From a virus, in IMG/VR virus record IMGVR_UViG_3300025732_000024, positions 31,305-95,304 of that record: a stretch of DNA of 64,000 nucleotides; one strand, given 5' to 3'. Numbering within the stretch: the stretch's first letter is position 1; each line of letters opens with the position of its first letter. The position numbers and the translations under genes were made by a program. Below, piece by piece: positions 24,429 to 46,414 of this stretch. The notes below the pieces were generated by a model. It saw nothing but the letters and a program-made list of their open reading frames with translations, did no database searches and was not told where the DNA came from.

Positions 24429-24455
24429 CAGCCGTATAATTACACTGGAGAATTT

Positions 24456-24755: not shown

Positions 24756-24756
24756 T

Positions 24757-24812: not shown

Positions 24813-24839
24813 CAGCCGTATAATTACACTGGATAAACT

Positions 24840-29976: not shown

Positions 29977-31509
29977 ATGACTAACCCGTTTGCATCCAAA
30001 AAAGAAGTATTTGCCCCATTAATTAACGCCGAACGGTGGCTAATGGGTGCGTTCGCTGTGGCTGGCATCGGGTTTACATTCACTCCCGTCATCTGGCCAC
30101 AACAAAGACCGGAAGTTAAGCTGATTCAATCAGTTTTTGGATTATTCTCCAGTGGATGCTTTACCCTTTCAGCTATAGAAAGAAAGAGTAAGGAAAAAGA
30201 CTATCAAGCTATTTCTCACGCTCACCATGAGATTGTAAAAGAGGAACTCAAGGGGCAATTTGCCTTTGAGCAATCACGGCAGCAGATAGAATCTAAGCGC
30301 AAACTTGCCACCTATGTAAACGCATTACCACTAGAAGAAAGGCAGCAATGGGCGATACAATACGGACTACACGGGTTGATTGAGTTGCCACAAATACAGC
30401 AAGCCGTAATTGAGCAGCCGCGACGATTGCCAGGGCGCATCCCTAGTCCTGATATTGCGGATGTAAATGAAGATGCGGTTCAGGAAATTATCAATCCTGG
30501 GGTGATGTCTGTATTGCAAGAATTAGCCGCTCAATACCCTGAATACATCAGGATTGATGAGCAATGGGTTGACGAGTTATGCGATTCATCATCGTTGCAG
30601 GACATGGGGAAACGAGCTAACCATCACTTCAGTTTTTGGGGTGAAACCCAATCTGGTAAATCAACTTTAGCAGGTGTTTTTATCAATAAAATAGCTGCTA
30701 AGTCTCAAAGCCCAGCCATAGTCATTGGTTCAGACCCCAAGAATTATTTAACTACTTGGCTATGTAAATTTAGCCGTAAATTTGACGGGTTCAAAGATAA
30801 TTTAGATGACTGGGTAACGTTTGCCACAAAGGTTATAGACTCCAGGCAAAACGAATATAAAGACAACAAAAAAGGAACGGGTTTACCCGAATTATTTTTA
30901 ATTCAGGACGAGGTAAACGTAGTCTATGGCGAAGGAAAAGGCTTACTCGGTCAAGTCCCTAAAGAGACAGCATTGAACCTTTGCGCTATGTGGAATTACA
31001 TCATTAATTTCACAGCCGCCATGAAGATTCACGGTATATTCATGGGACAAAACCCATTAAGTGGTTACACAGGTTTTAGTCGTCCAGCACTTAAAAATAT
31101 CTGTTTTTTAGCATTAGGAAAAGTATCGAATTACGTCCTAACTAAAATGCCAGAAATATTAAATGTAAAATCAGAAATCCTGGAATTATTAGGTAATGCC
31201 TGTGAACTACTTGATAAAGGGGGCGTACGCTATGCTTTAGTAGTTCCCACTCGTGGCAATCCTTACGTAGCACTAATTCCTACATTTGATATTAATTCAT
31301 TAGAGCAAACAACACAACCCCAAGCAGACGATGAACAAGAAGCAAGTGACGCGACTAACTGGTATGAAATCTTAGTTGAATGGGTAAAACAATTAGAAAG
31401 ACAACCCACGCCCCAAGAACTTAAAGCAGCATGGAAACAACTAACCAAGCAAGAATTAAATGATAGCGGCGTTGCTCTGTTAATGGAGAAACTAGGATTC
31501 AAGGAATAA
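29977..31509 (+). CDS. Membrane-anchored FtsK/HerA-like P-loop ATPase
   Basis: Two N-terminal TM segments; GETQSGKST; LIQDE; GQNP. Confidence 0.75.
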   Translation: MTNPFASKKEVFAPLINAERWLMGAFAVAGIGFTFTPVIWPQQRPEVKLIQSVFGLFSSGCFTLSAIERKSKEKDYQAISHAHHEIVKEELKGQFAFEQSRQQIESKRKLATYVNALPLEERQQWAIQYGLHGLIELPQIQQAVIEQPRRLPGRIPSPDIADVNEDAVQEIINPGVMSVLQELAAQYPEYIRIDEQWVDELCDSSSLQDMGKRANHHFSFWGETQSGKSTLAGVFINKIAAKSQSPAIVIGSDPKNYLTTWLCKFSRKFDGFKDNLDDWVTFATKVIDSRQNEYKDNKKGTGLPELFLIQDEVNVVYGEGKGLLGQVPKETALNLCAMWNYIINFTAAMKIHGIFMGQNPLSGYTGFSRPALKNICFLALGKVSNYVLTKMPEILNVKSEILELLGNACELLDKGGVRYALVVPTRGNPYVALIPTFDINSLEQTTQPQADDEQEASDATNWYEILVEWVKQLERQPTPQELKAAWKQLTKQELNDSGVALLMEKLGFKE

Positions 31510-31699
31510 ATAAATCTCTGCATATTTCCCAGATTCACTTACTAGGAAATAATCATGAAAACCACAATCAACGAACTAGTCAGAGTTGCTATCAAATCCC
31601 TAGACGCACTTTCACAACATCCAGAAATATCCAATAATTCTGATATTGAAAGTGCCATTAATCTTATTCTTAAATTGCGTAATCAAGATTACTCAAAGC

Positions 31700-32020
31700 A
31701 TGAACTTCAATAAACGCTATGGCAACCTTAAAAAATATCGTCAACAATGCGCGATCGCTCACAAATCCACTCACGGTCTATGCTGTGTCTGCATGACCAG
31801 AAAGTCACAAGAGATACACCACGCATTTTACGGTAACGATATTATCGGCGTGTCCACCTATCCGGTCTGTGCAAAATGTCATCAAACAATCTGCCACAGT
31901 CCGGAAAACTGGATTAAAGACCATCAGAACCCCGTCTGGAAGAACCGGAACACAATGCAATTTACTCAAAGATTGCAGCTTGGGTACAAGTTACTTTACG
32001 AAGGTATAAACCATCAGTAG
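31700..32020 (+). CDS. HNH-like Zn-binding protein (paralog of 12686..13018)
   Basis: RYGNLKKY...THGLCCVC...IHH...CAKCH. Confidence 0.65.
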   Translation: MNFNKRYGNLKKYRQQCAIAHKSTHGLCCVCMTRKSQEIHHAFYGNDIIGVSTYPVCAKCHQTICHSPENWIKDHQNPVWKNRNTMQFTQRLQLGYKLLYEGINHQ

Positions 32021-32101
32021 AAACGAGGTGCATCAACGCACCCTTTGTAATTCCTGTATAGTATAAATAGTAAGCGTTTTTGACGAGAATTTGACGAGAA
32101 T

Positions 32102-33040
32102 ATGAGTATTATTTACGCTAAAAAGACTACCGCACAGGGCGGAAGATGTATCAAGTGCAGCAGATACCGATGGTTAGAGGCACGAAGCGACGACGGCGGC
32201 ATCTGTACAGAATGCGTTCTTAGTCTGAAAAAGCAAAAATTAATCAGCTTCGCCAGACCACCTAAGCCACCTAAACCAGTAAAAATCAAGCCACCTAAAC
32301 CACCTAAGCCACCTAAGCCACCCACAAGAAGAGAGATAGTAACAGCAACGTCGGACAAAATACTGGAAGTCATGAAGAAGTCCAAGACTCCGTTAAGTGT
32401 TCACGAATTAGCCGCAAAACTTGACATTCAACCCAATAGGGCAAAGTTGCAATGGCTAAGAAAAATATGTCAAAAAATGACAACCAACAAGCTACTTGCT
32501 CAATCTGACAGTCGTTACAAACAATACATTAACATCTCCAGGCGACACTTGTTGTCTAAATTATCCACACACAATTACTTACGGAATGCAAGGGAATTAT
32601 CTATAGATAAAGTCAAAAAATTCCTAGAATCATCCACAACCGCTCAAAGTTGCTCACAGATATTAGATGGATTGAATGGACTAACAAGAGTAGTATTATA
32701 CAAAGTTCTACGGATTTTAATAGCTAGAGATTTAGTTGAATATCATGTTAATTCAGCAGGAAAAAAAACTACATTTTATGCACTCAAATCCAATCAATTA
32801 GCAATTACTGATTTAGAAAAAATCCGAGAAAATTGTATTGACAACAAGATTATAAATATAGTAAAAAATGGGGGTAATAAAATTACAAAGAACAAAATCG
32901 TCAAGCAGTTAGGACTACGTTCCCCAGGTAATTCTCGCGTGAAAAAGACCCTAGAGCGACTCATCCAAAACGGAAAGATAACCCGTGAACCACTAGGGGA
33001 ATACAAAAACGGATTCATTTATTTACTAAAGCAACCATGA
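32102..33040 (+). CDS. Zn-finger, PPK repeat and multi-winged-helix protein
   Basis: CIKC..CTEC, (PPK)n, several wHTH-like segments; stop overlaps next ATG. Confidence 0.6.
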   Translation: MSIIYAKKTTAQGGRCIKCSRYRWLEARSDDGGICTECVLSLKKQKLISFARPPKPPKPVKIKPPKPPKPPKPPTRREIVTATSDKILEVMKKSKTPLSVHELAAKLDIQPNRAKLQWLRKICQKMTTNKLLAQSDSRYKQYINISRRHLLSKLSTHNYLRNARELSIDKVKKFLESSTTAQSCSQILDGLNGLTRVVLYKVLRILIARDLVEYHVNSAGKKTTFYALKSNQLAITDLEKIRENCIDNKIINIVKNGGNKITKNKIVKQLGLRSPGNSRVKKTLERLIQNGKITREPLGEYKNGFIYLLKQP

Positions 33041-33552
33041 ACAATCATTACGGCATTCCCCAAACACGGGATAAATGTTACGGCGCAGCAGCCTGTCTCA
33101 CCTATTGGGTATTCAAATGCAGAGACCGTAAACGCAGTCCGGCAATGGGGACTAAAACCTGGAGTTATCTAGAATCAAGCATCAGAAATTCAGCCGAAAT
33201 ATCCACTAATTTAGAGGATTATTTACAGCATCTTTGTGACAAACTTTGCTCACAATTACGACCGATTGAGCTAACAAAAGTCATTCAACCTACCCAGAGA
33301 ATCCTGCGGGTAAATGAAGATGCGACGGAAATCAAGGAACTGCCATTAGACCAAAATCTAGTCTTTATGGGTTGGCTAGACCTAATCAATGATATTGCTC
33401 CTCACGGTTTCTCTGAGTGGGATGTACTGGAATTACTGAGAACTAAAGCAGGGATTATTCAGGTAGTCTGTAGATTGAGATTTGAAGAAGACCGGAGCTT
33501 GGGACTTGATGAACCAGAGGAATTTATAGAAATCGAGGCGACAAATGTTTGA
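33037..33552 (+). CDS. cas11: Type IV-B Cas11-like small subunit
   Basis: Helical 171-aa gene directly upstream of csf2. Confidence 0.55.
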   Translation: MNNHYGIPQTRDKCYGAAACLTYWVFKCRDRKRSPAMGTKTWSYLESSIRNSAEISTNLEDYLQHLCDKLCSQLRPIELTKVIQPTQRILRVNEDATEIKELPLDQNLVFMGWLDLINDIAPHGFSEWDVLELLRTKAGIIQVVCRLRFEEDRSLGLDEPEEFIEIEATNV

Positions 33553-34675
33553 TAATTATGATATTTTTGATAGGGAAAAATTGACCCTACATTGCCTGAT
33601 TACACTGCAAACACCTCTATCACATATTGGTGAAGTGTCGGGCAATGTGAGCAACTTAAAAACATCAAAATTACTTGATTTTGAAGGCAATCCTAGAAGT
33701 GTTTTTACCTATTCAGGTAATGCTATCAGGAATGGCATTTTACGCCGTGTAGGGGTGGCAGCAACACTTAAAGAACTAGGAATTCAGATAAACCCTGACA
33801 CGCACCATACCATGTTTGCAGGTGGCAGAATTGACGGAAGCACAGCTTCAGATATGCAATTAGACAAGAAAATCCGGGTGCTAATGCCTTGGCTATCAGT
33901 GCTGGGAACAGCCAAACCGACGGGAGTATTTGGTAGTAAAGATGCTCAAATGGTGCAGGGAAGAATTAACGTTGGCTCTGGGTATCTCATCTGCTACGAA
34001 TCAGCAGAATACGTATACAATCAAGTACCTGCGCTTCTACCACCAAAAGTACAGCCTGTTGTGGAGCAATTATTAATAGCTAAAAATAGGCTATCTTCTG
34101 ATCCTTTTACTCCTACATCGGCTGAAGATATTGATTCTTGGGAGCAAGCTAAATCTGAATATTTGCCATTGCTGCAAAAACATTTAAAGACATGGACGGA
34201 ATACTTGACCATTGACCAGACGACGCGCAGAGATAGCACCTTAGACCCTAATCTGCTCAAGTTTCTACCTGGTGAGGTGCAGACACAATTGAAGGGTGAC
34301 GGTACTGCTAAAGAGAAAAAATCAGACCAGATGATTGCATCCGATAGGCTGATTATGGCAGGAGCAAAACTTTATTCTAGATGGGATTTAAACTGTACCA
34401 AAATTGAGCAAGGATGGATTTTTGATACATTACTAAAATTCTCAGAATCACCCTACATTGGCGGTAAAGGCAACCGTGGCAATGGCAGGGTACATCTAGA
34501 TTTTTGGTTTCAATCTTCAGATGAAAAAGGCTTACTTTGCTCCCTTAAAGATGGTGTTTTGAGCGATCGCTTCCTCAATGCCCATCAAAAATACAGGGAG
34601 TACATCAATCAATACCAGCATTTCCTAAGTGAAGCGAAAACATCCAATGAATTAAGGAGTCTATTAGGTGGTTAG
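33545..34675 (+). CDS. csf2: Type IV Cas7-family backbone protein
   Basis: TPLSH, SGNAIRNGILRR, FAGG, LSVLG, GRINVG, TRRD, IGGKGNRGNG. Confidence 0.88.
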   Translation: MFDNYDIFDREKLTLHCLITLQTPLSHIGEVSGNVSNLKTSKLLDFEGNPRSVFTYSGNAIRNGILRRVGVAATLKELGIQINPDTHHTMFAGGRIDGSTASDMQLDKKIRVLMPWLSVLGTAKPTGVFGSKDAQMVQGRINVGSGYLICYESAEYVYNQVPALLPPKVQPVVEQLLIAKNRLSSDPFTPTSAEDIDSWEQAKSEYLPLLQKHLKTWTEYLTIDQTTRRDSTLDPNLLKFLPGEVQTQLKGDGTAKEKKSDQMIASDRLIMAGAKLYSRWDLNCTKIEQGWIFDTLLKFSESPYIGGKGNRGNGRVHLDFWFQSSDEKGLLCSLKDGVLSDRFLNAHQKYREYINQYQHFLSEAKTSNELRSLLGG

Positions 34676-35030
34676 TGGTAACTGGTTCATCACACCTCAC
34701 GCTGTACGGAAATTCATGCAAATCACCGGATACGAATACAACGAAAGCCTAAGCAGGCTTTTGATTATTTCCAGTACAGCTAAGTTCGTCAAAGTCCTTC
34801 CCAGTGGATTTAGCCTGTACCGTCAGTATTTCCGCCGTTCTACACAAGTCCGGGAAAAGCGCAAACAGGAAGGCAAGGTTAACAACGCCAGAACAAATCT
34901 AGGTCTGGTAATTGCACCCCCAAACAAAGAAGGACAGCTACCACAACTGGTAACTGTCCTTTACAGAAATCCTTATAAAGCTACTCAAAAGATACAGCAA
35001 ACAATTTGCCATCTTCAGAACTTTGAATGA
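34668..35030 (+). CDS. Hypothetical protein (possible toxin-like HAxxK motif)
   Basis: ITPHAVRKF...LVTV. Confidence 0.4.
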   Translation: MVSGNWFITPHAVRKFMQITGYEYNESLSRLLIISSTAKFVKVLPSGFSLYRQYFRRSTQVREKRKQEGKVNNARTNLGLVIAPPNKEGQLPQLVTVLYRNPYKATQKIQQTICHLQNFE

Positions 35031-35262
35031 CTACCGCGTTGGGCGGTAGTTCGTAAACTTCACCGGGGAAAATTCCCTCGGCTATTTCGTATTCATCAAA
35101 TTCCCAGTTTTGGATGTCTTGGACATCCTCAGAGACTTTTTGTTCTGAGATATCCGCAACAAGATTGGTACAAAGGTTGTCTACATAGTTGATACCCCCG
35201 CGCACCCGCGCCCAGTGGGTAACTTTGCTCGCTTTGCTAATGATTTCCTTCAATATGGGCAT
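34981..35262 (-). CDS. Hypothetical protein in insertion within the IV-B operon
   Basis: ORF coupled to 35237..35431. Confidence 0.55.
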   Translation of the reverse strand: MPILKEIISKASKVTHWARVRGGINYVDNLCTNLVADISEQKVSEDVQDIQNWEFDEYEIAEGIFPGEVYELPPNAVVIQSSEDGKLFAVSFE

Positions 35263-35431
35263 TCCATTCCTCCGCTATTTGTTTAATCAGTCCTGAAACA
35301 TTTGGCTCACCCTTCTTTGAGCCGTTAGAAATGAACAATCCCCTTTGGGTTGCCATTTCTCTGAGGATTTGGTGATGCTCTACCTCTAGGGAGATAGAAA
35401 TCACATACTTGGGTTCGTCTCTTTTTCGCAT
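35237..35431 (-). CDS. RHH-like protein (similar to 17432..17680)
   Basis: ISISL...GEPNVSGLIKQIA. Confidence 0.55.
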   Translation of the reverse strand: MRKRDEPKYVISISLEVEHHQILREMATQRGLFISNGSKKGEPNVSGLIKQIAEEWNAHIEGNH

Positions 35432-35451
35432 TCTTTTCTTGGTATAGACTA

Positions 35452-36203
35452 ATAGTAAATCAATTTTTTCTATTAGTCAATACCAATTAACACTGAATTC
35501 TATCGGGTCTTTTTGTTACGCGAAGGAATCTCCGCGTAGTGTGGACAGGATAGAGATGTAGCTATCCCAATCCATCGTCACATTTTTGAAACAGGTAATC
35601 CAGACACAGGAGTCTGATAATGTTCTTAGCTTGTCAACTCTGGACAAGCCAGTTTGTAATTTTGTGTTATTGAGTTTAGCGAGATTTCTCGCTACTCTAT
35701 CTTGAGTCAACTCTTCGATTTCTTTGTTGTTCTCACGTAAAGCGTTAAAGTAACGCTCCGCATTTTCTTGTCCTAAATTGCTTGTTACTTGTTCTTTGTT
35801 TTCTGTAATATACCCTTCTAAATCCATGAAAAAGTCGGCATAGCCTTCTCTTTTAAGAACTTCTCTTTTTGCTGATTCGTAGCAAACAGCTTGAGCATTT
35901 TCTACCAAATTAAGGACTTCACTTCTAATGTCTGATGCCCATGCTATTTGTTTTTCAGTTCCATTTAGTTCAGGTAATGTCACGGTTAGCTCCTCTAATT
36001 TTGCCTCTAAATCAACCAATCTAAGAACATAGGACTTGAAAGCCTTGACACCTTTAGATAAAATATCCTTAATCACTTGGATTTGGTGCTTAACGATTCT
36101 AATCAAAAATGTCTTTGTAACTTTCATTGCCCTGTCTCCTTTACTTGGTATGTACCAATAGTAAATCAATCTTTTTCATTAGTCAATACCAGTCAACACT
36201 GAA
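35452..36203 (-). promoter_or_regulatory. Duplicated sigma70-type promoter (35452-35497 and 36158-36203)
   Basis: TTGACT-N17-TACTAT on the minus strand in both copies. Confidence 0.75.
35516..36127 (-). CDS. Hypothetical protein with the shared N-module and an LxGTEKQIAWA motif
   Basis: Start MKVTK with AAGGAG RBS. Confidence 0.7.
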   Translation of the reverse strand: MKVTKTFLIRIVKHQIQVIKDILSKGVKAFKSYVLRLVDLEAKLEELTVTLPELNGTEKQIAWASDIRSEVLNLVENAQAVCYESAKREVLKREGYADFFMDLEGYITENKEQVTSNLGQENAERYFNALRENNKEIEELTQDRVARNLAKLNNTKLQTGLSRVDKLRTLSDSCVWITCFKNVTMDWDSYISILSTLRGDSFA

Positions 36204-36228
36204 CTTTTCCAAGTAACTTTTCTAACTT

Positions 36229-36918
36229 ATGCAAAACCTACAGATTACCGCGCACCTATCCACAGCTATCGGCACTTACGATAACTGGAGTCCTTCAATC
36301 GAGGGGATTCTGATTTACCAGCTACTTGTAAGGCATGACTTATTGTCTTGCAATCCTACATCACAAGAAGTAGCTGAAATGCAAGATTTCCTAGCCAAGA
36401 ACCTGCCCTTGCAGCAAACATCTATAAAAGATGAAAAATATTATTGCTCTAGCTCACCTTACTATGTAGTCCAGGGTGAAGCTACCGATAAATACAGGAA
36501 GCGGTGGGATAGTCATGATATTAACTTGAATTGGGGAAAAAGAAAGCCGCAATTCAAAACTGGAGAAGGTGCAGAAAAATCCTATGATTTACCTTTGTAT
36601 GTGCGCTTAGTTTCTAGCATTAACTGGTTTGTGGTTGGTGATAAAGATGAAATCAAAAGTTTATTATTATCCGTAGATCACATCCAAAAAAAACGCAGCT
36701 ACGGCAACGGTGAAGTACGGGAATGGCAGATAGGAATAGCTTACGACGACTATCATCTATGGCGAGATGATAAACTAATGAAGCCCATTCCTGTTAGGTT
36801 GATTGACCAGAAGCTAGATAATCCCCAGATGGTTTGGGGATGGAGAAGCCCCGCATGGTTGGCTGTCAACAAAGAATTATGCTATATGCCAAAGGATAAT
36901 GTGATTTATGCAAGATGA
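36229..36918 (+). CDS. csf3: Type IV Cas5-family protein
   Basis: YRKRWD, KSYDLP, VGD, KKRSYGNGEV. Confidence 0.82.
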   Translation: MQNLQITAHLSTAIGTYDNWSPSIEGILIYQLLVRHDLLSCNPTSQEVAEMQDFLAKNLPLQQTSIKDEKYYCSSSPYYVVQGEATDKYRKRWDSHDINLNWGKRKPQFKTGEGAEKSYDLPLYVRLVSSINWFVVGDKDEIKSLLLSVDHIQKKRSYGNGEVREWQIGIAYDDYHLWRDDKLMKPIPVRLIDQKLDNPQMVWGWRSPAWLAVNKELCYMPKDNVIYAR

Positions 36919-37624
36919 TGAAAGGCTGATGTTTGAAGGTTGGGCGACCCTGCCAGCCTTTAAAAAGAAAGTAGAACAAGCTAAGATTGTAATCAGAGAG
37001 GCATTAGAAATTACACCTGGTTATGTAGCAGTAAGCTGGGGTAAAGATAGCGTGGTAATGCTGCATTTATGCCAACAGATAAAGCCTGATATCATAGCAG
37101 TAAATTACGGCTCATCGGAGCAAGATATTGTTGACAACTATAGCGAAGTAATTAACACTTATCTGCAAAGATTCCCCACCGATTACAAAGAATTAATAGG
37201 ACTTCCTGAATGGGCTAACGACTCAAATACAGTACAGGATAGATGCAATCAAATATTAGAAGGAACGCATACTTTAGCCTTTGTAGGACTCAGAGCAGAA
37301 GAGAGTAAAAACCGTAAACGCTCTATTCTACAAAATGGTTTAATCCATCAATATAAGTCAGGAAGATACAAAGGACATTACCGCGTCTGTCCTCTGGGAT
37401 GGTGGACATGGCGAGACATTTGGGGTTATACCATTGTCAATAATTTACCCTATCTTGATAGTTACGATTATAAAGATAGAGAGCGCGGTAGAACCAATGC
37501 CCATGCTAGATATTGGTTTTCAAGCAATAAAAACAAGCGAGTATCTGAAGGCAAGATTGACACGATTAGAAAATACAACTTTCCTTTGTTTACATTGTTG
37601 CAATCAGAAGGCATATATGATTAA
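36908..37624 (+). CDS. cysH: CysH/PAPS-reductase-like protein (IV-B signature)
   Basis: VAVSWGKDS, VGLRAEES..R, CPLGWWTWRDIW. Confidence 0.88.
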   Translation: MQDDERLMFEGWATLPAFKKKVEQAKIVIREALEITPGYVAVSWGKDSVVMLHLCQQIKPDIIAVNYGSSEQDIVDNYSEVINTYLQRFPTDYKELIGLPEWANDSNTVQDRCNQILEGTHTLAFVGLRAEESKNRKRSILQNGLIHQYKSGRYKGHYRVCPLGWWTWRDIWGYTIVNNLPYLDSYDYKDRERGRTNAHARYWFSSNKNKRVSEGKIDTIRKYNFPLFTLLQSEGIYD

Positions 37625-37766
37625 AGAAATATTGTTTGATGAAGTCCCCAAAGAGTATTTATTGCAAGTCAATAAATCTATTAACATTAGATTTGCTAAT
37701 GGGAAAAAATACCAAAGAATGATTTTTGATGCTAATATAATAAATTAGAAATGTTGAGGTAAAAAC

Positions 37767-38459
37767 ATGGATTTGGGAATATATTTGACAGACAAATCTG
37801 CATTTGAGCAGTTAGCTTCTAAGGAAATTACGATTGATTTGACTACTCAAGAAAGTTTTTCACCTATTAAACGCTGGGAGATATTCAGTAGAGTCCGTTT
37901 TGAGTACGTGCGTCCGACTTGTGTACTACGCTCTCAATCAGTGCCGTCAGTGTTGCCTAGTATGCCAGAAAACGAAAAAGAATATGGAATAAAAACATAC
38001 TTGCGCTCAGGGTTAAACCCCAATATTGAAGCAATAGAAAAGCTACGCCAAAGCCTAGAAAACCCTGTACCTGGAACTTTGGCAGATGCGCTAAAAACCT
38101 ATTACAAAACAGAGCAAGTAGAAATTCCAGGTACAGATGCTTCCTTATTCCCTGCGGATTACATTATAGTTCACGATTTGCATCATGTATTACTGGGTAT
38201 TGATACATCCCACAGAGGAGAATTAATTGTCATAGCCTACGAAAGTGGCATGATTCAAAAGACAGAATTTCCCATACTTTTGATTGAGCAATTAGAAATA
38301 TTTGTCTCTGATTTGTTCAAAGATATTAAGTCCCATGAACTTCTAAAATATTGGAACATAGGAGTTAAATCTGCGGAATTAGTTGACAATTGGGAGTGGT
38401 GGCATGATTTAGATTTACCCTTGTCATCAGTCAGAGAAAAATACAATATCATCTTATAA
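37767..38459 (+). CDS. Protein with Coq4-like metal-binding domain
   Basis: HDLHHVLLGIDTSHRGE (HDxxH-x11-E); C-terminal LPLSSVREKYNI. Confidence 0.6.
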   Translation: MDLGIYLTDKSAFEQLASKEITIDLTTQESFSPIKRWEIFSRVRFEYVRPTCVLRSQSVPSVLPSMPENEKEYGIKTYLRSGLNPNIEAIEKLRQSLENPVPGTLADALKTYYKTEQVEIPGTDASLFPADYIIVHDLHHVLLGIDTSHRGELIVIAYESGMIQKTEFPILLIEQLEIFVSDLFKDIKSHELLKYWNIGVKSAELVDNWEWWHDLDLPLSSVREKYNIIL

Positions 38460-38515
38460 AAATTAGGTGCGCGGGCTTGTCAAACCGCGCGCCTAACCCA
38501 AAATCAGAGGACACA

Positions 38516-39304
38516 ATGAGTAACTGCTACCTTTGCGCTAAACCAGGGAACAAGCCGCTAGAGTTATCCAATACCTTTACAATGCACTCATCTGCAAAAT
38601 GCCCTGACTCTAAGACACTGTGTCCACGCTGTCACAGCACCATCGCAGGAGACCAGAAGCAGCTATGGTATTGGAATCCAGGCAAAAGCAAATGGTCTAA
38701 ATTATGGGGAAGGTCGCTGTCTAGAGTCTACCAACAAGACACATTAGTCGCACCTGTCTTAGACGGTGAACGCACTGAAGGCAAGGATACCTTTCCCGTC
38801 GTCAAAAACCTATTAACCAGAGTCGAAATCAGAGAGTATCTGCTCAACCCTCCCGTGCCACCGTTTACAATTGCCATAGCAGAGTCAGGGCAAAAGCACA
38901 TTATGCCCTGGGCATTAGAGGCATACAACCGTGATTACTTTCCTGTGCTATTTGAACTAGACATAGTCTATATTGATTGCAGATTTAAAGAATATCTGCA
39001 CACTTATGAGCAATTAATGGGATTAGGTTTTAGCAAGACTGAGATTGACTTAGGTGACTATCGCAGTGATAGATTAATGAAAGTGTTCGCATCACCAAGC
39101 GCGAATGATAGATATTGGGAATTAGAAAACAAGATTGCAACCATCAGAGAAACCAGGTTACTGGCATTAATCAATTACGTGGCTCAATGTCCAGAAGATG
39201 ACATAAAAGAAGAAGTTGTCCAGGAAGAAATCACAGAAAAACCCATTGCTGTTAATGTTCCCAAAGCAGCAAAGCAGTCCGTTCAACTATCATTATTTGG
39301 ATGA
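38516..39304 (+). CDS. csf1: Type IV Cas8-like Zn-finger subunit
   Basis: CYLC, CPRC, LLNPPVPPF...GQKH. Confidence 0.8.
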   Translation: MSNCYLCAKPGNKPLELSNTFTMHSSAKCPDSKTLCPRCHSTIAGDQKQLWYWNPGKSKWSKLWGRSLSRVYQQDTLVAPVLDGERTEGKDTFPVVKNLLTRVEIREYLLNPPVPPFTIAIAESGQKHIMPWALEAYNRDYFPVLFELDIVYIDCRFKEYLHTYEQLMGLGFSKTEIDLGDYRSDRLMKVFASPSANDRYWELENKIATIRETRLLALINYVAQCPEDDIKEEVVQEEITEKPIAVNVPKAAKQSVQLSLFG

Positions 39305-39306
39305 CT

Positions 39307-39474
39307 TTACCCCATGCCCCAAGCATCCCCAATAAGTTTAAGATATTGCGTTTCTTGTATTATCATCGCTTCGTATTGCGCTATCAGTCGTTCCTTGACT
39401 TGTTCTGGCGTCATATCCCGAACTTGCAATTTAAAAGCCGCAATTTGAAATTGTTGCTCAGTCGTTAGATTCAT
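39307..39474 (-). CDS. nblA: Phycobilisome degradation adaptor NblA (55 aa, absent from ORF track)
   Basis: MNLTTEQQFQIAAFKLQVRDMTPEQVKERLIAQYEAMIIQETQYLKLIGDAWGMG matches NblA LSLEQQF..F..QV..MS.EQ..L..Y..M; ATGA overlap with upstream gene. Confidence 0.92.
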   Translation of the reverse strand: MNLTTEQQFQIAAFKLQVRDMTPEQVKERLIAQYEAMIIQETQYLKLIGDAWGMG

Positions 39475-40028
39475 GGTTTCAGGAATGTATTGAGTATTTT
39501 TAATAATTCTAGGATAGCATCTCCCGACACCTGATCACGGTTAGATAATTGCAATAACTCATATCCCAATAATTCATAGTTAATACCCTGTAAATTAACA
39601 ATCACAGGGTATTTTGATTTTAATATTAATGCTTTATTAAAAGCGTCAAATTTCCAATACAAGGATACATCTACCATAATTAAATTCTGGGTAAAGCTTA
39701 ATATATGGGAATTAAAAACAGACTTCGGTTTTATGCCATGACAACCATAAAATGTATCGTCAGGCTCTTTATCGCATATTTGTTCTAATATATTAACTAA
39801 ATTAGCGCGGGTAGTTTTAACCCGGTGTTTTTGCCCAATCAGTCCATAAATCTCCCGCATCATATCCCCAATATAATTAGGGTCATATCCTAATTTTGTT
39901 GCTATTTCATTATAAGAATGTCCTTGCAAAAGCATTTTTAAACTATCAGACTCTACCGTGTTCAAAGGCTTATTTCTGATATCTTCAGATATTTTATTAA
40001 GGTATTTAATATATTCAATTTGCTTCAT
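39471..40028 (-). CDS. Cyanobacterial HTH-domain protein (start MKQIEY)
   Basis: KPLNTVE...QGHSYNEIATKLGY...YI, as in N-terminal HTH of cyanobacterial NTPases; the ORF-track start lies inside a CRISPR repeat. Confidence 0.65.
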   Translation of the reverse strand: MKQIEYIKYLNKISEDIRNKPLNTVESDSLKMLLQGHSYNEIATKLGYDPNYIGDMMREIYGLIGQKHRVKTTRANLVNILEQICDKEPDDTFYGCHGIKPKSVFNSHILSFTQNLIMVDVSLYWKFDAFNKALILKSKYPVIVNLQGINYELLGYELLQLSNRDQVSGDAILELLKILNTFLKP

Positions 40029-40155
40029 ACTTTCCCAGTCTATTCTAATGTTCTGCAAGGTACTAGCTTTGCTCCATCTCATCCAGGATGATATAAAATT
40101 GTTTCGTTCTTCCCAGGTTTTTTGTGGGTTTGTTTCGTTCTTCCCAAGTTCTCGT

Positions 40156-40624
40156 GTTTCGCTCCACCCCAACTCTTTCGCCCCTTAGCAAGAAAATCGC
40201 TACTATGTGCGACTTCCATTGATTAGTTTCCTCCCACCCCAATCCTTTCGCCCCTTAGCAAGCTAAATAAGCCTTTGCTAATTTAGGAGCTAGTTCCTGT
40301 TTCCTCCCACCCCAATCCTTTCGCCCCTTAGCAAGCGTTAATCAGGTCGGTTTTGGGGTTATTTTCTGTGGAGTTTCCTCCCACCCCAACTCTTTCGCCC
40401 CTTAGCAAGAATAGAATGTTATTATCTACATAGCTTATGTCTGAGTTTCCTCCCACCCCAACTCTTTCGCCCCTTAGCAAGTTTTGAGGTTATCTGTGTC
40501 GTATCAGAGTCAGATGTTTCCTCCCACCCCAACTCTTTCGCCCCTTAGCAAGCTATCAGCATCCAGGTTAATTCTTCTATCCGTTGCGTTTCCTCCCACC
40601 CCAACTCTTTCGCCCCTTAGCAAG
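40156..40624 (-). CRISPR. CRISPR array 1: 7 repeats of 37 bp, 6 spacers of 33-37 nt
   Basis: Repeat CTTGCTAAGGGGCGAAAGAGTTGGGGTGGGAGGAAAC at 40156, 40226, 40299, 40373, 40445, 40516, 40588; most divergent 3' end at the trailer repeat 40156. Confidence 0.98.
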
Positions 40625-40771
40625 TCCGTCTTTTCAAAGCCTTATGCAGCAAGGGTTCTGTGAGCGGTTTTGGCGAACCTCTTAAAAAATCTCATTTCAG
40701 CCGCTTCAATTTCTTGCGATGTGTAGCGAAGGAAGCCTGAAAATATTACAATGCCTTGGTTCTGAGGATTT

Positions 40772-40908
40772 GGCGAAAGCCTTGGGATAGAAAGCCAGCC
40801 ATAGCTCCGGCTGGTCTGTGAGGGTCATCACTTCTCCTCTTACTTTTCAGGACGAATCCCTAGAAGTCATAGGCTAACCAAAGTCAGCCACCCGCCCAAA
40901 CTGCGGTG
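40772..40908 (-). ncRNA. Putative tracrRNA 1; leader at 40625-40771
   Basis: Promoter TTGACA(40942-40937)-N17-TAACAT; anti-repeat CUUUCUAUCCCAAGGCUUUCGCC (40794-40772) pairs with repeat 1; homologous to 46278-46414. Confidence 0.8.
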
Positions 40909-41305
40909 ATTTGATGTTAGCCTACATCCTATTAATTGTCAATCAATATATCTATAGTCTTGTTGATGTTTCCGATAATTGATACAATATTCAAACCAGC
41001 ACCGCAAAGGTGGCACACGCACCACCTAAGAGGTTTTACCACTGGCAATATTTCACCCGTGAGGGCGGGCTACTTTATATGTCTAATGATACCTCAAAAC
41101 TGTTGTTGCAACAATTGATTCAGGATTTACCAGGGGTGAAGGACTTGCTGTTTCACGGTTGGTAGAGGTTTTTGTTAATTATCGAAAAGTCAATAAGACT
41201 ATTGAAGAAATGATATGATTACTGAAACCATCCCACTCAGGAATATTTGCGGTATTCCGGTGGTTTCAATGGTTAGTCCACTCTACTTAATTCCCTTAGT
41301 GAACT

Positions 41306-42067
41306 ATGAACAGTTTAACAAAGATTGACGTAATTAATAAAGATGGTGATTTAGTAGTTGACTCACGGTTAATCGCTGATGAATTAGGGATTGAACATGA
41401 AGTGTTTATGCGTACTGTTAAAAAGTACGAAACCAAGATACAACAACGCTTTGGAATAATCCGTTTTGAAAACGGAAAAATAGACGGGCGTGGTAGACCT
41501 GAAAAATACGCACTTTTAACAGAATCACAGGCTACCACTTTGATGACTTTTTCTCGTAACACGGATCAGGTTGTGGAGTGTAAATTAAACCTTGTGGCAG
41601 CGTTTGAAAAAGCTAAATCTGTAATCAAATCCGTCATTCCCCAGCAATCGGTACGTATTCAAGAATTAGAACTTGAATTAGCACTTGCCAAGGAAATCAA
41701 CGCGAGCAAGCGGCTTGACTCAGATATGCTTACAATGCACGGGAAGGAAACAGTTTTAGCGTTACGTGGAATGTCGGATCAGGTAATCAAATCCGAGGTA
41801 TTGGTAACTGAGATTGTGCAACCGGAAACTGGTAAAACCGTCAAAATTCTCACAGCAGATCAACTCAAGTCAGAAATTAAAAAACGTACAGGGCAAAAGA
41901 TACCCTCGCTTAAATGGGTAGCCGATAAATTACGTGCTGCAAATCGTGATGATTTATTAGTGCCTGTTACCCGTCACAGCACCAATGAATACATCACGTC
42001 CGATTCACTGGATGAAGTTATTGATTTGGTATTCGGAACTGCCAGACAAACATTAATTGGGGAGTAG
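41306..42067 (+). CDS. Rha-family antirepressor
   Basis: VVDSRLIA, LLTESQATTLMTFSRNT, KLNLVAAFEK. Confidence 0.85.
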   Translation: MNSLTKIDVINKDGDLVVDSRLIADELGIEHEVFMRTVKKYETKIQQRFGIIRFENGKIDGRGRPEKYALLTESQATTLMTFSRNTDQVVECKLNLVAAFEKAKSVIKSVIPQQSVRIQELELELALAKEINASKRLDSDMLTMHGKETVLALRGMSDQVIKSEVLVTEIVQPETGKTVKILTADQLKSEIKKRTGQKIPSLKWVADKLRAANRDDLLVPVTRHSTNEYITSDSLDEVIDLVFGTARQTLIGE

Positions 42068-42526
42068 TTAATTTAGTCGGTCGCATCTTTGGGGCGATCG
42101 CAGCTTCGTAATTCAGTAAGAAACACAAGGAGTGATGAAAAATACATGATTTATGACTACGCTGACCTTTATGATTATTCTATGATAAACGTAGGTAGTC
42201 GGGTTAGATCAACGATTCATAAAAACATGGCTGGGATAGTTGCAAAGAAAGAAGTAATAGAAGTATCCGGCATTCCTTCTGCTACCTTTATCACGGTTCA
42301 ATGGGATAACGGTGAAATATCACATCCGTATCCGCACCAGATAGCTATTGAGCTAGTTCTAAATAAATAAACTTGTCAAATTATTATTGTTACAACTTAT
42401 CGAAAAGTCAATGAGACTATTGAAAACATGATATGATTACTGAAACCATCCCACTCAGGAATATTTACGGTATTCCGGTGGTTTCGATGGTTAGCTTTTC
42501 ACCCGGAAAGGACGGGTTACTTTGCT

Positions 42527-43129
42527 ATGAACAGTATATCAGTTTTCGCGCTTAATGGAATCTCTGTAGAGTTAGACAAAGATTTTATCAGTCTCAATAA
42601 ACTATGGGAAATGGCTGGCAATCCAGAGAATCAAGATCCTCGTCAATGGGCAAGATTACCTCAGACAATCAGGCTAATCTCTCAAGTCCTTACGGAGCAA
42701 GGGTTTCAAGATAATAAGGAGAACAGGAAATTTGTTGTGGTTGTCAAAAGAGGCAAGTGCGGTTATACAAAAGCTATTCCTGCTATAGCGGCTGAGTATG
42801 AGTTGTACTTGAAAAAAACTCAGAGGGCATTAACTTTTGGAATCAGAGAAAAAAACATCCAAGCCTACTTAGCTCGAAAACTAAAAGGCAAAATTGAGAT
42901 CAAAACTTTAGCTGGGTTTATTGACATACTGACGCAAACAGAAATTATTGAAGTTAAAAATATTCGTGAGTGGAAGTCTGCTTTGGGGCAAATCTTAGTA
43001 TATGGAGATTACTACCCATCACATCAAAAAAGAATCCATCTGTTTGGCGAAACTGAAGAGTCATTTTTAAACATGGTACGTCAGCACTGCGAAAAAAGAG
43101 GAGTAAAAGTAACATGGCAGAAAATATAG
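42527..43129 (+). CDS. KilA-N-like domain plus PD-(D/E)xK nuclease domain
   Basis: ISLNKLWEMAG..PRQW; IDILT..IIEVK..WKSALGQ. Confidence 0.75.
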   Translation: MNSISVFALNGISVELDKDFISLNKLWEMAGNPENQDPRQWARLPQTIRLISQVLTEQGFQDNKENRKFVVVVKRGKCGYTKAIPAIAAEYELYLKKTQRALTFGIREKNIQAYLARKLKGKIEIKTLAGFIDILTQTEIIEVKNIREWKSALGQILVYGDYYPSHQKRIHLFGETEESFLNMVRQHCEKRGVKVTWQKI

Positions 43130-43416
43130 GATTTTATAAGATTCTCAAAGAACATGGTGTCAGTGCGCCGCATGAATACGCAATATGTACCAATGAGATT
43201 TACAAACCTTTATTCGGTGGTACTGCCAAAGAAGTAAAAGAAAAAAGAGGAATCAAAACACTTAGAAACGGTCTTTCAAGGGTTGAATTAATGGCCATTG
43301 GGCTTGCGGAAGCATTAGCATCTGAAAAGATGGAAAATACCAATGCCAATGGTTTCTTAAAATGTCGAAACATTTGCAGCGACTCCAGTAAACGAGTTAA
43401 CCGAGTTTTTGAATAA
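43114..43416 (+). CDS. Antirepressor C-terminal-like protein
   Basis: YAICTNEIYKPLFG..A..LRNGLSRVEL. Confidence 0.55.
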   Translation: MAENIGFYKILKEHGVSAPHEYAICTNEIYKPLFGGTAKEVKEKRGIKTLRNGLSRVELMAIGLAEALASEKMENTNANGFLKCRNICSDSSKRVNRVFE

Positions 43417-43441
43417 CCATCTCAACTAATCACAAAACACA

Positions 43442-44095
43442 ATGGAATCATACACAGAAGATAGTCCATTTGTTCCTAGTTTTTCTATCAAGAAACTAGC
43501 AAAAACGCTATTGGGAGATCACAATAATCTGCCAGATTCACCTGGTATTTACTTTGCCTTAGACGCTGCTAATCGTGTTTGGTATGTCGGCATATCAACC
43601 ACCAGCCTAAGAAATCGCCATGCTAGTCACGAGAAATTACCAGAGTTCAAAGAACATAAAGTGCAGTACATAGCCTACTTTGTATGGACTGACATAGACG
43701 ATTTAGAAGAATGGGAAATAGGCTATATCCAGAAATTTAATCCCCCATTAAACATAAACCATATCCAAAAAGAATTACCTCAGATTGACTTAGGGTATGG
43801 TGAGGAACACTACATCAGCAGATACAGAGAAATAAAAGAGCAAATAGCTTTGTTAGAACAGGAAATGGAAGAATTAAAGCCAAATCTTGTTACCTTATTA
43901 GAACGTGAAGGTGGGAAAATATCTCATAAACCCCTGGGATTTAGTGGATACCTAACATCACGCAAATCTTACCAATATTCATCAAAAGTAGAAGCTATCA
44001 AAGAGCTACTAAAACAATCTCAGAAACAAGAAGAAGAGGACGGTACTGCTATTGTGAAATCCGTCACAACTTACCCAACATTTAGATTTAGATAG
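43442..44095 (+). CDS. GIY-YIG domain protein
   Basis: PGIY...WYVG...LRNR...E..YI.KFNPPLN. Confidence 0.8.
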   Translation: MESYTEDSPFVPSFSIKKLAKTLLGDHNNLPDSPGIYFALDAANRVWYVGISTTSLRNRHASHEKLPEFKEHKVQYIAYFVWTDIDDLEEWEIGYIQKFNPPLNINHIQKELPQIDLGYGEEHYISRYREIKEQIALLEQEMEELKPNLVTLLEREGGKISHKPLGFSGYLTSRKSYQYSSKVEAIKELLKQSQKQEEEDGTAIVKSVTTYPTFRFR

Positions 44096-44105
44096 TTGAT
44101 TACCC

Positions 44106-44345
44106 ATGAAAAAACAGCAACCCGAAAAAGTATCAATCAGTGAAATAATTCCCTTCCTGCTCACCATAGATACTCGTAACTGGGAGCAATTCAAGGCACT
44201 GGAAAAAAGCTTTGTTGATAAACACGATGCGGAGACGTGGGAATATGTACTTAACTTTCAAATAAAACCAGTGCTAGATAAAGATTCTGACCGATGGTTA
44301 CTAATTCAATGGTGTAAAAATATCATAGTCAATCAAGGTTATTAA
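44106..44345 (+). CDS. Small hypothetical protein
   Basis: ORF directly upstream of the type V gene. Confidence 0.55.
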   Translation: MKKQQPEKVSISEIIPFLLTIDTRNWEQFKALEKSFVDKHDAETWEYVLNFQIKPVLDKDSDRWLLIQWCKNIIVNQGY

Positions 44346-44378
44346 CTAGGGAAAACAAACAAGCAAGCAGTAAACAAC

Positions 44379-46247
44379 ATGAAAACAATCAAAATCAAGG
44401 TAAAGCTAACACCTAGTCAAATAGAATCCTGCGATAAATATTTAGAAGAATTATCCTGGTTGTGGAACTTGGTCCTAGCCAATCAACTGCACAATCACTG
44501 TATTCGCTGGTATGAATGGGCTGCTAAACTTAGTGCCGAATTAGCAAAAACCAACGAGAAGTTAGAGAAATTAAAACCAGAACAACAGCAATTAATTAAA
44601 GATTATTACAACTCCACAACCAAGCCTAAGCTAAGTAAAAAAGACCAAGAATTAGTCAACAAATTCAACATACTCTCTAGATGGAGTCCCTTCGATTTAG
44701 AAGGGATTATTCCCGTCCCTTTGCGTATTGGTAACAGTGCTTATGAAGGACTATCTTGCCAAATTGCCACAGGTGGGAGCTACTGGAAACGAGATGACAA
44801 CACCGTCATTCCCGTTAACACCAAGAAAGGCATAGCATTCATCAAAGGGTCGAAGTTAGTCAAGGGTGACAGACCCTGGCAGCGAATAGAAATAAAGTCC
44901 CATGAGTACAGGAAATTCCCCGGCGGTAAATACGAAGGACGGGAATTAATCACCTTAGAAAAATTCGATAATCTCAACGGATTAAACACACTAAGAGCAT
45001 CTCAAAACCTACCAGATTTAACCGTTTCTTCTCACTACATAGGTGGTCTATTGGGATTCTTCAAAGAATCTTGGAAAGCATTTTTGGATTCAAAAAGGAC
45101 AATCAGCAGGAAGCCTAAATTCAAAAAAGATAACGATAAAATTGCAACCTTGTCTAACAGTCAATGCCCACCAAACCGCATAGATGTTGACAAAAACATC
45201 ATAGCCATAACCGGATTCAGTGCAGTGAAAGTTGATGATAAATCCTGGGTAAAACGACTGAATTTATCCCAGTCCTTACCCCGCACCTATATGTTGACAA
45301 AGCAACAATCAGGCTACTACATAAACATTATAGTTGCTCATCCACTGCAAGAAGAGAAGTCAATATTAGCCAACAAACTACCCAAAGTCAAAAAACAATT
45401 TGGAGAAGACAGTCAAGAGTATGCAGATATTAAGTCAAAACTAAAATTCATTGAACAACAAATCAAGGAATCATCAGTCATTGAAGGCAAGGGATTAAGT
45501 GTAGGCATAGACCCAGGCGTTCAGTCAGTTGTGTCCACAGACCACGGTGCTTTATTTTTGCCAAATTTATCTAGGGAGCGTGTTTCTATCCACATAGAAG
45601 AACTCCAATCAAAACTAGATAATGCTGAATCAATCAATGATAAAAAGTGGAAAGAAGCAGGGAACAAAACACCTAGACCTAGAACCAATACCGAGATTAA
45701 ACTACAAGATAAAATCAGAAGATTGCATGAACGCGGCAGCAATTCATCCAATGCCTTTAATCACAAATTATCCACAAGATTATCGCGCACCTATGAACAT
45801 ATTGCCTGGGAAAACACCCAAATCAAAAACCTACTCAAGCAAGTAGAACCCAAATCACTACCAGAAGGTACCGGCTACGCTCACAATGGTGCATCTGCTA
45901 AACGCGGATTAAATTGGATTATGAGACAAAGATGTTTAGGTGATTTAGAAAAAAAGACAAAGCTAAAAGTTGAAAATCGCGGTGGCAGTTTTCAGCAGCC
46001 ACCAGCTAACTACACATCCCAAACTTGCCACCAATGCGGACAAAAGGGAGAACGATTATCACAGCATGAATTTATCTGTAAAAACTCCGAATGTAGACTG
46101 TTTAACGTCCCACAACAAGCAGATACCAACGCAGCCAGGAATCACAAACAGAACGCCGGATTTGAATTAGGAGAAGTCAAGTACAACGGCGTAAGATTGA
46201 CATACGAAAAACCCCAAAGATTCAAGAAAAAACGCGCTGACAGTTGA
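44379..46247 (+). CDS. TnpB-derived type V (Cas12-like) effector, 622 aa, RuvC triad intact
   Basis: MKTIKIKVKLT start; RKPKFKK; GIDPG (D378); AWEN (E478); YTSQTCHQCG...CKNSEC; ADTNAARN (D582); tracr/leader/array directly downstream. Confidence 0.88.
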   Translation: MKTIKIKVKLTPSQIESCDKYLEELSWLWNLVLANQLHNHCIRWYEWAAKLSAELAKTNEKLEKLKPEQQQLIKDYYNSTTKPKLSKKDQELVNKFNILSRWSPFDLEGIIPVPLRIGNSAYEGLSCQIATGGSYWKRDDNTVIPVNTKKGIAFIKGSKLVKGDRPWQRIEIKSHEYRKFPGGKYEGRELITLEKFDNLNGLNTLRASQNLPDLTVSSHYIGGLLGFFKESWKAFLDSKRTISRKPKFKKDNDKIATLSNSQCPPNRIDVDKNIIAITGFSAVKVDDKSWVKRLNLSQSLPRTYMLTKQQSGYYINIIVAHPLQEEKSILANKLPKVKKQFGEDSQEYADIKSKLKFIEQQIKESSVIEGKGLSVGIDPGVQSVVSTDHGALFLPNLSRERVSIHIEELQSKLDNAESINDKKWKEAGNKTPRPRTNTEIKLQDKIRRLHERGSNSSNAFNHKLSTRLSRTYEHIAWENTQIKNLLKQVEPKSLPEGTGYAHNGASAKRGLNWIMRQRCLGDLEKKTKLKVENRGGSFQQPPANYTSQTCHQCGQKGERLSQHEFICKNSECRLFNVPQQADTNAARNHKQNAGFELGEVKYNGVRLTYEKPQRFKKKRADS

Positions 46248-46277
46248 CAATTAAAACTGCTCATGCTAATATCAAAT

Positions 46278-46414
46278 CACCGCAGTTTGGGCGGGCGGCT
46301 AGTTTAATATTAGCCTATGACTTCTAGGGATTTATCCTGAAAAGTAAGGGGGAAGGTGACAACCCCCATAGACCAGCCGGAACTATGGCTGGCAGCCTTC
46401 AAAATCACTCGCGC
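46278..46414 (+). ncRNA. Putative tracrRNA 2; leader at 46415-46561
   Basis: TTGACA(46244-46249, overlapping the cas stop)-N17-TAATAT; hairpins co-vary with tracrRNA 1; anti-repeat-like CAGCCUUCAAAAUCACUCGC at 46393-46412. Confidence 0.78.

Follow-up and report, generated by a model that had tools for sequence, protein, structure and literature searches.

What does a type IV-B CRISPR (short palindromic repeats that are clustered and regularly interspaced) cassette do in a phage, and is it served by an array that lies next to it? The question is raised by a stretch of viral DNA of 64,000 nt (hereafter the window), bases 31305-95304 of the IMG/VR record IMGVR_UViG_3300025732_000024, in which a IV-B cassette at 33037-39304 neighbours a CRISPR array. 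No CRISPR subtype is more reduced than type IV-B, and what it does has been a question ever since it was defined. Our reading, to which we assign a probability of roughly 0.6, is that the cassette is an intact IV-B module of a freshwater cyanophage, probably infecting Nostocales, that the neighbouring array does not serve it in cis, and that, as a mechanism with about one chance in three, the IV-B particle is tethered to the host sliding clamp. The IV-B identity is secure. Positions are those of the window unless marked as genome positions.

A reading made from the sequence alone had proposed a complete IV-B set at these positions, and profile searches agree with it. PADLOC models name cas11, csf2, csf3 and csf1, and the Pfam model PAPS_reduct names a cysH-like gene (Table 1). 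The hidden Markov model check suggested for Csf1, Csf2 and Csf3 gave PADLOC matches of 2e-22, 2e-36 and 8e-39, and the NCBIfam models for the three proteins name the same genes, with scores below their cut-offs. The two breaks that the sequence-only reading had left in the gene order, after csf2 and after cysH, are real gaps, filled by inserted open reading frames (ORFs) at 34676-36228 and by a 230-aa gene, orf230, at 37767-38459. Against the PDB, Csf2 scores best with its IV-B counterpart in 7jhy (E=9e-4), compared with E=0.9 for the IV-A protein 8rc2. A Cas11-like small subunit, which separates IV-B and IV-C from IV-A, is present here and at the same position in all relatives' cassettes. Csf1 has the zinc-ribbon cysteine pair expected of the large subunit; across 40 homologues, Cys49 and Cys52 never vary, and Cys17 and Cys20 hardly do. 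The complete genome has no match to Cas1 (PF01867) or to the Csf4/DinG helicase (TIGR03117); for Cas6 there is none genome-wide to PF10040, the sole Cas6 model run at that scale, and no PADLOC Cas6 among the cassette ORFs. With the five genes present and Cas1, Cas6 and DinG absent, the gene set is therefore that of subtype IV-B as defined previously (PMC7038947; PMC8175902). The set is not a chance assembly, because at least 17 further viral contigs have these five genes in an unchanged order, with identities of 38-91%.

The IV-B module is genuine and intact. Each of the five genes keeps its full length, uninterrupted by frameshift or stop codon. Against the relatives L018 and L005, the ratio of nonsynonymous to synonymous substitution rates (dN/dS) is 0.04-0.09 where computable, dS being saturated elsewhere; cas11-csf2 and csf3-cysH-like-(Coq4-like)-csf1 are conserved, and purifying selection acts on them. 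RNA libraries of two studies yielded contigs that span cas11-csf2, csf3, orf230-csf1, array 1 and tracr-like stretch 2, with DNA carry-over possible; the depths of these contigs and the stretches left uncovered were not used to rank expression.

The source record is 95,304 bp long with direct terminal repeats, and is therefore a complete genome. The phage carries virion and regulator genes, namely a Mu-like portal, a gpJ-like tail protein, Rha, KilA-N, a large terminase and a prohead protease. That it is a cyanophage, as had been read from the letters alone, is well supported. The NblA profile (PF04485) scores 51.1 bits against 39307-39474 on the minus strand (cut-off 25; E=1.9e-13), and a phage-encoded NblA points to a cyanobacterium as the host. 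Homologues of Csf1 and orf230 come from metagenome-assembled genomes (MAGs) named Dolichospermum, Sphaerospermopsis, Chroococcidiopsis and Spirulinaceae, the portal finds matches for its C-terminal part in Cylindrospermopsis and Synechococcus phages, and the phage DNA is found in freshwater and lake metagenomes of many studies. A Nostocales host is likely on these sequence matches. The gpJ-like tail protein is uninformative on the host, its matches being limited to distant proteobacterial phages, and no tRNA genes were found in the 64-kb window.

To which system do the arrays belong? Between the csf1 stop (39304) and the first repeat of array 1 (40156) lies a gap of about 851 nt, in agreement with the distance of about 850 bp given by the sequence-only reading; the csf1-proximal end of the array holds a degenerate repeat. 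The same reading had the arrays served by a type V module, and this also holds: a 622-aa Cas12 is accompanied by a stretch resembling a trans-activating CRISPR RNA (tracrRNA; tracr-like hereafter) and by array 2, and array 1 has an inverted tracr copy that is 78% identical. The Cas12 matches Cas12p of PDB entry 9jfs over residues 1-613 (phmmer, 1131 bits). Of the RuvC motifs, GIDPGV and QADTNAARN are unchanged from 9jfs, and AWENTQ is paired with AWEDTQ; in TnpB and Cas12 proteins, the RuvC motifs are catalytic. Because 40625-40920 aligns along its length with 46260-46557, array 1 is an inverted paralogue of the tracr-array unit, and a promoter-like site (TTGACA-17-TAACAT, 40942-40914, minus strand) stands ahead of its tracr-like leader. 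On these sequence grounds, array 1 and array 2 belong to Cas12p, each behind a tracr-like RNA gene. Array 1 reads away from Cas12 and towards csf1, with a helix-turn-helix (HTH) gene and nblA in between on the same strand. No terminator-like hairpin was seen on the minus strand from array 1 to nblA; since the genes share that strand, transcription of array 1 could reach the HTH gene, nblA and, in antisense, csf1. Rfam gave no family for the tracr-like stretches or elsewhere in 31000-48000. As published, Cas12p is a phage-borne miniature nuclease that uses a tracrRNA and a CRISPR RNA (crRNA), prefers a GTN protospacer-adjacent motif (PAM) and is activated by the host thioredoxin TrxA, its hosts being undetermined; the preprint text does not mention type IV or Csf (10.1101/2025.01.20.633832).

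The array 2 repeat is unstructured (fold energy -2.2 kcal/mol), and the repeats of the window form no Cas6-type hairpin. In the Cas12p arrays of relatives (L012-L024), which count 3 to 20 repeats between strains, the repeat is a different one, CTTGCAGGATGACTAATCCCTTCTGAGGGATTGAAAC, with an 8-bp hairpin and the end ATTGAAAC, like class 1 repeats of cyanobacteria. Processing of the repeats by a host Cas6 was considered and dropped, as the array 2 repeat is unstructured and the hairpins of the relatives stop only 4 nt short of the spacer, which does not fit a classic Cas6 substrate.

Self-targeting spacers, which the sequence-only reading had thought might be non-lethal guides for the IV-B complex, do exist. 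The oldest spacer of array 1 matches 5134-5166 exactly, between the prohead protease and XRE genes; spacer 3 of array 2 matches genome positions 20702-20738, inside a 4694-aa ORF, and spacer 4 of array 2 matches tracr-like leader 1 at 40857-40891. In a sister strain (L017, 98% identical), one spacer matches cas12p itself (window 45403-45438). The PAM positions of these four read AGA, TGG, TGG and TTG, respectively; none of the four is GTN, and three have T[TG]G. If this Cas12p shares the published PAM, the self-matches can be harmless without help from IV-B, because none has GTN. As for targets outside the phage, exact searches of viral contigs with the two leader-proximal spacers gave no match, and neither did blastn of both whole arrays against isolated phages.

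The sequence-only reading had suggested testing whether the two modules occur together in relatives, and within this clade the outcome is in its favour. With Csf2 as query, ten viral contigs were retrieved (61-81% identity), and with Cas12 eight. In the relatives the cassette is compact (cas11-csf2-csf3-cysH-csf1) and has no array beside csf1. Every clade contig that is long enough (G002, G004, G006, G007, G008 and L018) carries cas12p, tracr and array 2.4-6 kb downstream of csf1. The sister strain L017 has both inverted tracr-array units, and its contig begins inside array 1, leaving the IV-B side out of view. Thus, the proposed co-occurrence stands for every informative clade contig; it does not stand for the distant G003 (74 kb, estimated 69% complete, csf2 68%), where IV-B occurs with neither cas12 nor array, or for G013 (complete, 89.7 kb, csf2 46%), where IV-B occurs without Cas12p. 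In G013 we observed a five-repeat array (17192-17540) beside a 467-aa Cas12f/TnpB-like ORF (L032:1174-2577, minus strand), 28 kb from the IV-B cassette. The contigs that carry both IV-B and Cas12p belong to a single narrow clade, in which Cas12 is at least 76% identical, and the co-occurrence may therefore reflect shared ancestry alone. Cas12p and IV-B may travel together only through one shared variable island of one phage lineage. No match was found among isolated phages (50,697 records) by blastn of the cassette or tblastn of Csf2, and a Csf2 alignment scan of species-representative cellular genomes yielded no relative.

What, then, could the cassette act on? Csf1 ends in ...SVQLSLFG, and its QLSLF fits the QL[SD]LF-type consensus of sliding-clamp docking motifs. 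Clade members retain the motif, while the linker in front of it varies freely. In 120 Csf1 homologue clusters, tails of the forms QLSLF, QLALF, QMALF, QLLLF and QMCLF occur in 41, on unrelated linkers, and the other clusters stop just past the conserved core. A complex model of Csf1 residues 226-275 with the Synechocystis clamp DnaN scored 0.67, compared with 0.01 for the best control; this mark is reached by 58 of 80 solved complexes and by 2 of 110 mismatched pairs. Across the runs, contact agreement was at least 63% and partner pLDDT (predicted local distance difference test) at least 41, with Csf1 266-274 placed in the canonical cleft; the Csf1 tail itself has a low pLDDT in the complex model (41-45). 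The model points to a likeness to clamp-docking peptides and not to binding as such. The phage genome itself lacks a clamp gene.

The cassette also holds two candidate enzymes. In the CysH-like protein, S43-x-G45-x-D47-S48 is invariant across the SWGKDS and SGGKDS variants; the G-x-R-x-x-E-S and P-x-x-x-W motifs are invariant too, and a C-terminal ECG[IL]H-type motif is not visible in the sequence. The SWGKDS variant found here is about 30% identical to the SGGKDS variant of most clade members, compared with 72-75% for the flanking csf3 and csf1. The product of orf230, which follows, has H136, D137, H140 and E152 invariant in 21 homologues, a pattern that fits HDxxH-x(10-13)-E, which we take to be the Coq4 metal-binding motif. 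Its match to Pfam Coq4 (PF05019) is 16.6 bits (E=0.005), below the cut-off of 22.9, and some of its homologues carry PF05019 in precomputed annotations. The AlphaFold2 model of orf230 has a pLDDT of 88.8, and its sole high-probability fold matches are the Nostoc Coq4 homologues 6e12 and 3msq (0.99-1.00), with a template-modelling (TM) score of just 0.42-0.52. The cysH-Coq4-like pair is found in L018, L027, L029, L030/G013 and L031, and it persists where csf2 is only 44-46% identical. Taken together, orf230 probably encodes a Coq4-like metalloprotein, a conserved partner of the SWGKDS CysH variant. In the searched literature, no paper links Coq4 with CysH and CRISPR in the sense of a CysH partner.

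We therefore propose the following working model. By analogy with the solved Mycobacterium IV-B complex, Csf2, Cas11, Csf3 and Csf1 would assemble a nuclease-free filament on RNA. The QLSLF of Csf1 may then tether the particle to the beta sliding clamp of the host, and so to DNA that is being replicated or is loaded with clamps, where the CysH-like PP-loop enzyme and its Coq4-like metal-enzyme partner would act as the effector arm. The outcome could be host takeover or the exclusion of rival elements, without cutting of DNA. Several points weigh against this model. The complex was modelled with the clamp of a different cyanobacterium as a stand-in. Complexes of clamps with peptides are textbook material, and because of this the model may have passed by reproducing structures already known. 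The clamp tail is absent in two thirds of the Csf1 homologue clusters and also in G003 and G013, and it therefore cannot be what IV-B function centres on. No substrate is known for either the CysH-like or the Coq4-like protein. Finally, the clade-wide co-occurrence with Cas12p, the array of G013 and a published plasmid with IV-B and Cas12b3 hint at a functional link between IV-B and type V modules.

A 1.55-kb insertion (34676-36228), not found in any relative, separates cas11-csf2 from csf3-csf1, and the cassette could accordingly be a decaying remnant, broken by the insertion and non-functional in this strain. Such decay would fit a strain-specific insertion that divides the two halves and carries opposite-strand promoters, with terminator-like hairpins behind csf2, inside the doubtful orf120 (34742-34763, plus strand; 34961-34930, minus strand, 14 bp). 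It is hard to reconcile with five full-length genes free of frameshifts and stops, with intact catalytic and structural motifs, with strong purifying selection against relatives and with the coverage of both halves by RNA-library contigs; in addition, a promoter scan places a promoter-like site at 36036-36064, upstream of csf3. We give this alternative very little credence. A different possibility is that the Csf complex acts as a sponge for the type I-D and type III crRNAs of the host, a bulky anti-CRISPR to which the nearby phage arrays would be irrelevant. Cyanobacterial hosts are rich in class 1 systems, and the phage has other candidate anti-type-III genes, such as a weakly Csx3-like ORF. 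[quoted passage not shown] A sponge would also leave the conserved CysH-like enzyme, its Coq4-like partner and the clamp tail unexplained, and we consider it quite unlikely.

The nearby arrays matter most if guides are shared, that is, if the Csf complex loads crRNAs of the Cas12p arrays as nuclease-free binding guides, including the self-matching spacers, and regulates phage genes in the manner of IV-A silencing. IV-B and Cas12p-tracr-array stand together in the same order in all informative clade contigs, and the distant complete phage G013 pairs IV-B with a different, Cas12f-like array, just as a plasmid pairs it with an inactivated Cas12b3 and a mini-array (Makarova 2025, PMC12669027). Loading of crRNAs from co-resident systems was proposed by Pinilla-Redondo 2020 (PMC7038947); the repeats here end in GAAAC at the spacer, the side on which class 1 complexes hold the 5' handle, and the four self-matching spacers lack the Cas12p PAM, three of them with the common T[TG]G. 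However, missing PAMs alone account for tolerated self-matches. Array 1 comes with a tracr copy and a promoter of its own, on the opposite strand, with nblA and the HTH gene between it and csf1, and no relative has an array beside csf1, so that array and csf1 are neighbours in this strain lineage only. The contigs in which the modules co-occur come from a single narrow lineage and are not independent cases; G003 (74 kb, estimated 69% complete) has IV-B without array or cas12, and the two modules of G013 are 28 kb apart. The window repeats have no Cas6-type hairpin, neither phage nor cassette has a Cas6, and the RNA bound by the solved IV-B complex was heterogeneous and not from CRISPR arrays (PMC7937560). 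Shared guides are thus unlikely in our view. It is more doubtful still that the IV-B complex, loaded with crRNAs of the Cas12p arrays, binds and tunes the phage's own genes through the self-matching spacers while Cas12p cuts rivals from the same arrays. The same doubt applies to the supposed tuned targets, which would be the intergenic region between the head operon and XRE, the tracr 1 unit (which may read into nblA), the giant structural gene and the cas12p of the sister strain. If it were true, this would be the first natural case of class 1 and class 2 effectors on one array and the first assigned function of IV-B.

Table 1. Features of the IV-B cassette, its insertion and the neighbouring Cas12p units (window positions)
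Feature	Position	Strand	Evidence or remark
HTH/winged-helix gene, 312 aa	32102-33040	+	Stop overlaps cas11 start; Pfam HTH_20 and Dimerisation; PHROG transcriptional regulator, 1e-7
cas11 (type IV small subunit)	33037-33552	+	PADLOC typeIV_Cas11, 2e-7; 38-91% identity in relatives' cassettes
csf2 (Cas7 backbone)	33545-34675	+	PADLOC Csf2_0_IV, 2e-36; dN/dS 0.05-0.08
orf120, doubtful ORF at left edge of insertion	34668-35030	+	No family or relative; terminator-like hairpins inside
Acidic 93-aa ORF of insertion	34981-35262	-	No relatives in fetched loci
Ribbon-helix-helix (RHH)-like 64-aa ORF of insertion	35237-35431	-	Weak RHH_4 match, 0.011; no relatives in fetched loci
65-nt palindrome-bearing repeat, copy 1	35433-35497	-	Promoter-like site TTGACT-17-TACTAT, upstream of 64-aa ORF
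204-217-aa ORF of insertion	35516-36169	-	PHROGs of unknown function only; atlas phage hypotheticals <0.9
65-nt palindrome-bearing repeat, copy 2	36139-36203	-	Promoter-like site TTGACT-17-TACTAT, just upstream of csf3, opposite strand
csf3 (Cas5)	36229-36918	+	PADLOC Csf3_0_IV, 8e-39; NCBIfam cas5_csf3, 4e-11 (below cut-off)
cysH-like PP-loop gene (CasCysH, SWGKDS variant)	36908-37624	+	Pfam PAPS_reduct, 5e-14, above curated cut-off
Coq4-like gene orf230 (230 aa)	37767-38459	+	HDxxH-x11-E motif; fold matches; follows cysH
csf1 (large subunit, CxxC...CxxC)	38477-39304	+	PADLOC Csf1_0_IV, 2e-22
QLSLF codons (Csf1 residues 270-274), putative sliding-clamp docking motif	39284-39298	+	Sequence; relatives; complex model
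nblA (phycobilisome degradation protein, 55 aa)	39307-39474	-	Convergent with csf1, 2 nt between stops
HTH-like gene	39471-40031 (start possibly up to 40172)	-	Weak HTH matches; stop overlapped by nblA
CRISPR array 1, 7 repeats of 37 nt, 6 spacers	40156-40624	-	Cas12p system
tracr-like leader 1 (about 300 nt)	40625-40920	-	Inverted paralogue of 46260-46557, 78% identical
cas12p ('Cas12 hacker'), 622 aa	44379-46247	+	phmmer to PDB 9jfs; PADLOC Cas12u2, 5e-58
tracr-like stretch 2	46260-46557	+	Conserved 3' of cas12p in all relatives
CRISPR array 2, about 8 repeats, degenerating towards far end	46562-47090	+	Cas12p system

Some neighbouring features deserve mention. The 312-aa HTH gene upstream of cas11 is a possible regulator; tblastn found no match to it in the relatives' loci, and it does not stand upstream of their cas11. 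Within it, a 9-nt tandem repeat, CCACCTAAG, of about 7.6 copies (32258-32322) codes for a PPK-type linker. The ORFs at 34668-36169 have no useful family, PHROG or atlas match, and to see an anti-CRISPR/anti-CRISPR-associated (acr-aca) pair in the RHH and acidic ORFs is only a guess. A 102-aa ORF at 21163-21471 (plus strand) matches Csx3 weakly (E=0.001; 19.3 bits, cut-off 21), and its product could serve as a ring nuclease or sponge against type III systems. Directly after stop codons lie three matches to hammerhead ribozymes (23720-23784, 24372-24429 and 24756-24813, plus strand), two of them type I and one type II, with Rfam E values of 5e-4 to 4e-3 under the gathering scores, none being at the gathering threshold. 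A 98-nt direct repeat (41179-41276 and 42397-42494, 95% identical) precedes the Rha-like and KilA-N-like genes; one lake-metagenome contig joins across it, skipping 1218 nt, so strains differ by a 1218-nt cassette. Downstream of the tail genes, a 477-aa ORF (55371-56804) contains seven copies of a 126-144-nt coding repeat (55830-56740) and is probably a repeat-domain fibre or receptor-binding protein. The 4694-aa single ORF that spacer 3 of array 2 targets lies outside the window (genome 14586-28670, minus strand) and presumably encodes a giant structural or tape-measure-like protein.

The clade unites IV-B, a characterised Cas12p, a tracrRNA and arrays on one small genome, which makes guide sharing directly testable. 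Its main value is that it supplies IV-B loci with neighbouring arrays; the comparative study that raised crRNA uptake by IV-B had no such locus (PMC7038947). The Csf1 clamp-docking motif and the Coq4-like partner of CysH, for their part, suggest concrete biochemical assays. The Cas12p publication had not noticed the IV-B neighbour and left the host undetermined; NblA and the MAG names now point to bloom-forming Nostocales. New here are the inverted tracr-array paralogue that puts an array about 852 bp from csf1, the split IV-B operon, the systematic absence of PAMs at self-targets, the putative Coq4-like partner of CysH and a second lineage (G013) pairing IV-B with another small type V system. 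The presence of IV-B on viruses was already published (PMC10848311 and references cited there).

Among known systems, the IV-B locus of Mycobacterium sp. JS623 (7jhy, PMC7937560) shares Cas11, Csf2, Csf3, Csf1 and a CysH-like protein, its location on a mobile element, and the lack of Cas6, DinG, adaptation genes and a nuclease. The present cassette is highly divergent from it (E=9e-4 to 7jhy, with NCBIfam scores far under the cut-offs) and differs in residing on a cyanophage and not a plasmid, in its split operon, in its extra Coq4-like gene, in the putative clamp-docking tail of Csf1 and in the type V array about 852 bp away. The atypical IV-B of a fuxivirus, a Bathyarchaeia virus, is likewise encoded by a virus, has a CysH-like gene and has an array in or beside the locus, and its authors also proposed that IV-B uses virus-encoded crRNA (PMC10848311). 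There, however, the virus is archaeal and a two-repeat mini-array comes with no separate effector, whereas the arrays described here are owned by Cas12p and its tracr. An Actinomyces conjugative plasmid carries IV-B beside a type V effector and an array (Makarova et al. 2025, Extended Data Fig. 7; PMC12669027); its Cas12b3 is V-B and nuclease-dead, whereas the element here is a phage whose Cas12p has RuvC motifs matching the active solved protein. Type IV-A interference likewise relies on a type IV complex without a nuclease and serves as the model for a guide-loaded IV-B, yet IV-A owns its array, a Cas6/Csf5 and the DinG helicase, and neither Cas6 nor DinG was found here. The published Cas12p phage loci (10.1101/2025.01.20.633832; 9jfs) are the closest to the neighbouring module, which is a member of them, with the same cas12-tracr-array layout and phage context. 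In the clade described here, IV-B is always upstream and NblA points to a cyanobacterial host, and this phage has in addition a second, inverted tracr-array unit and self-matching spacers.

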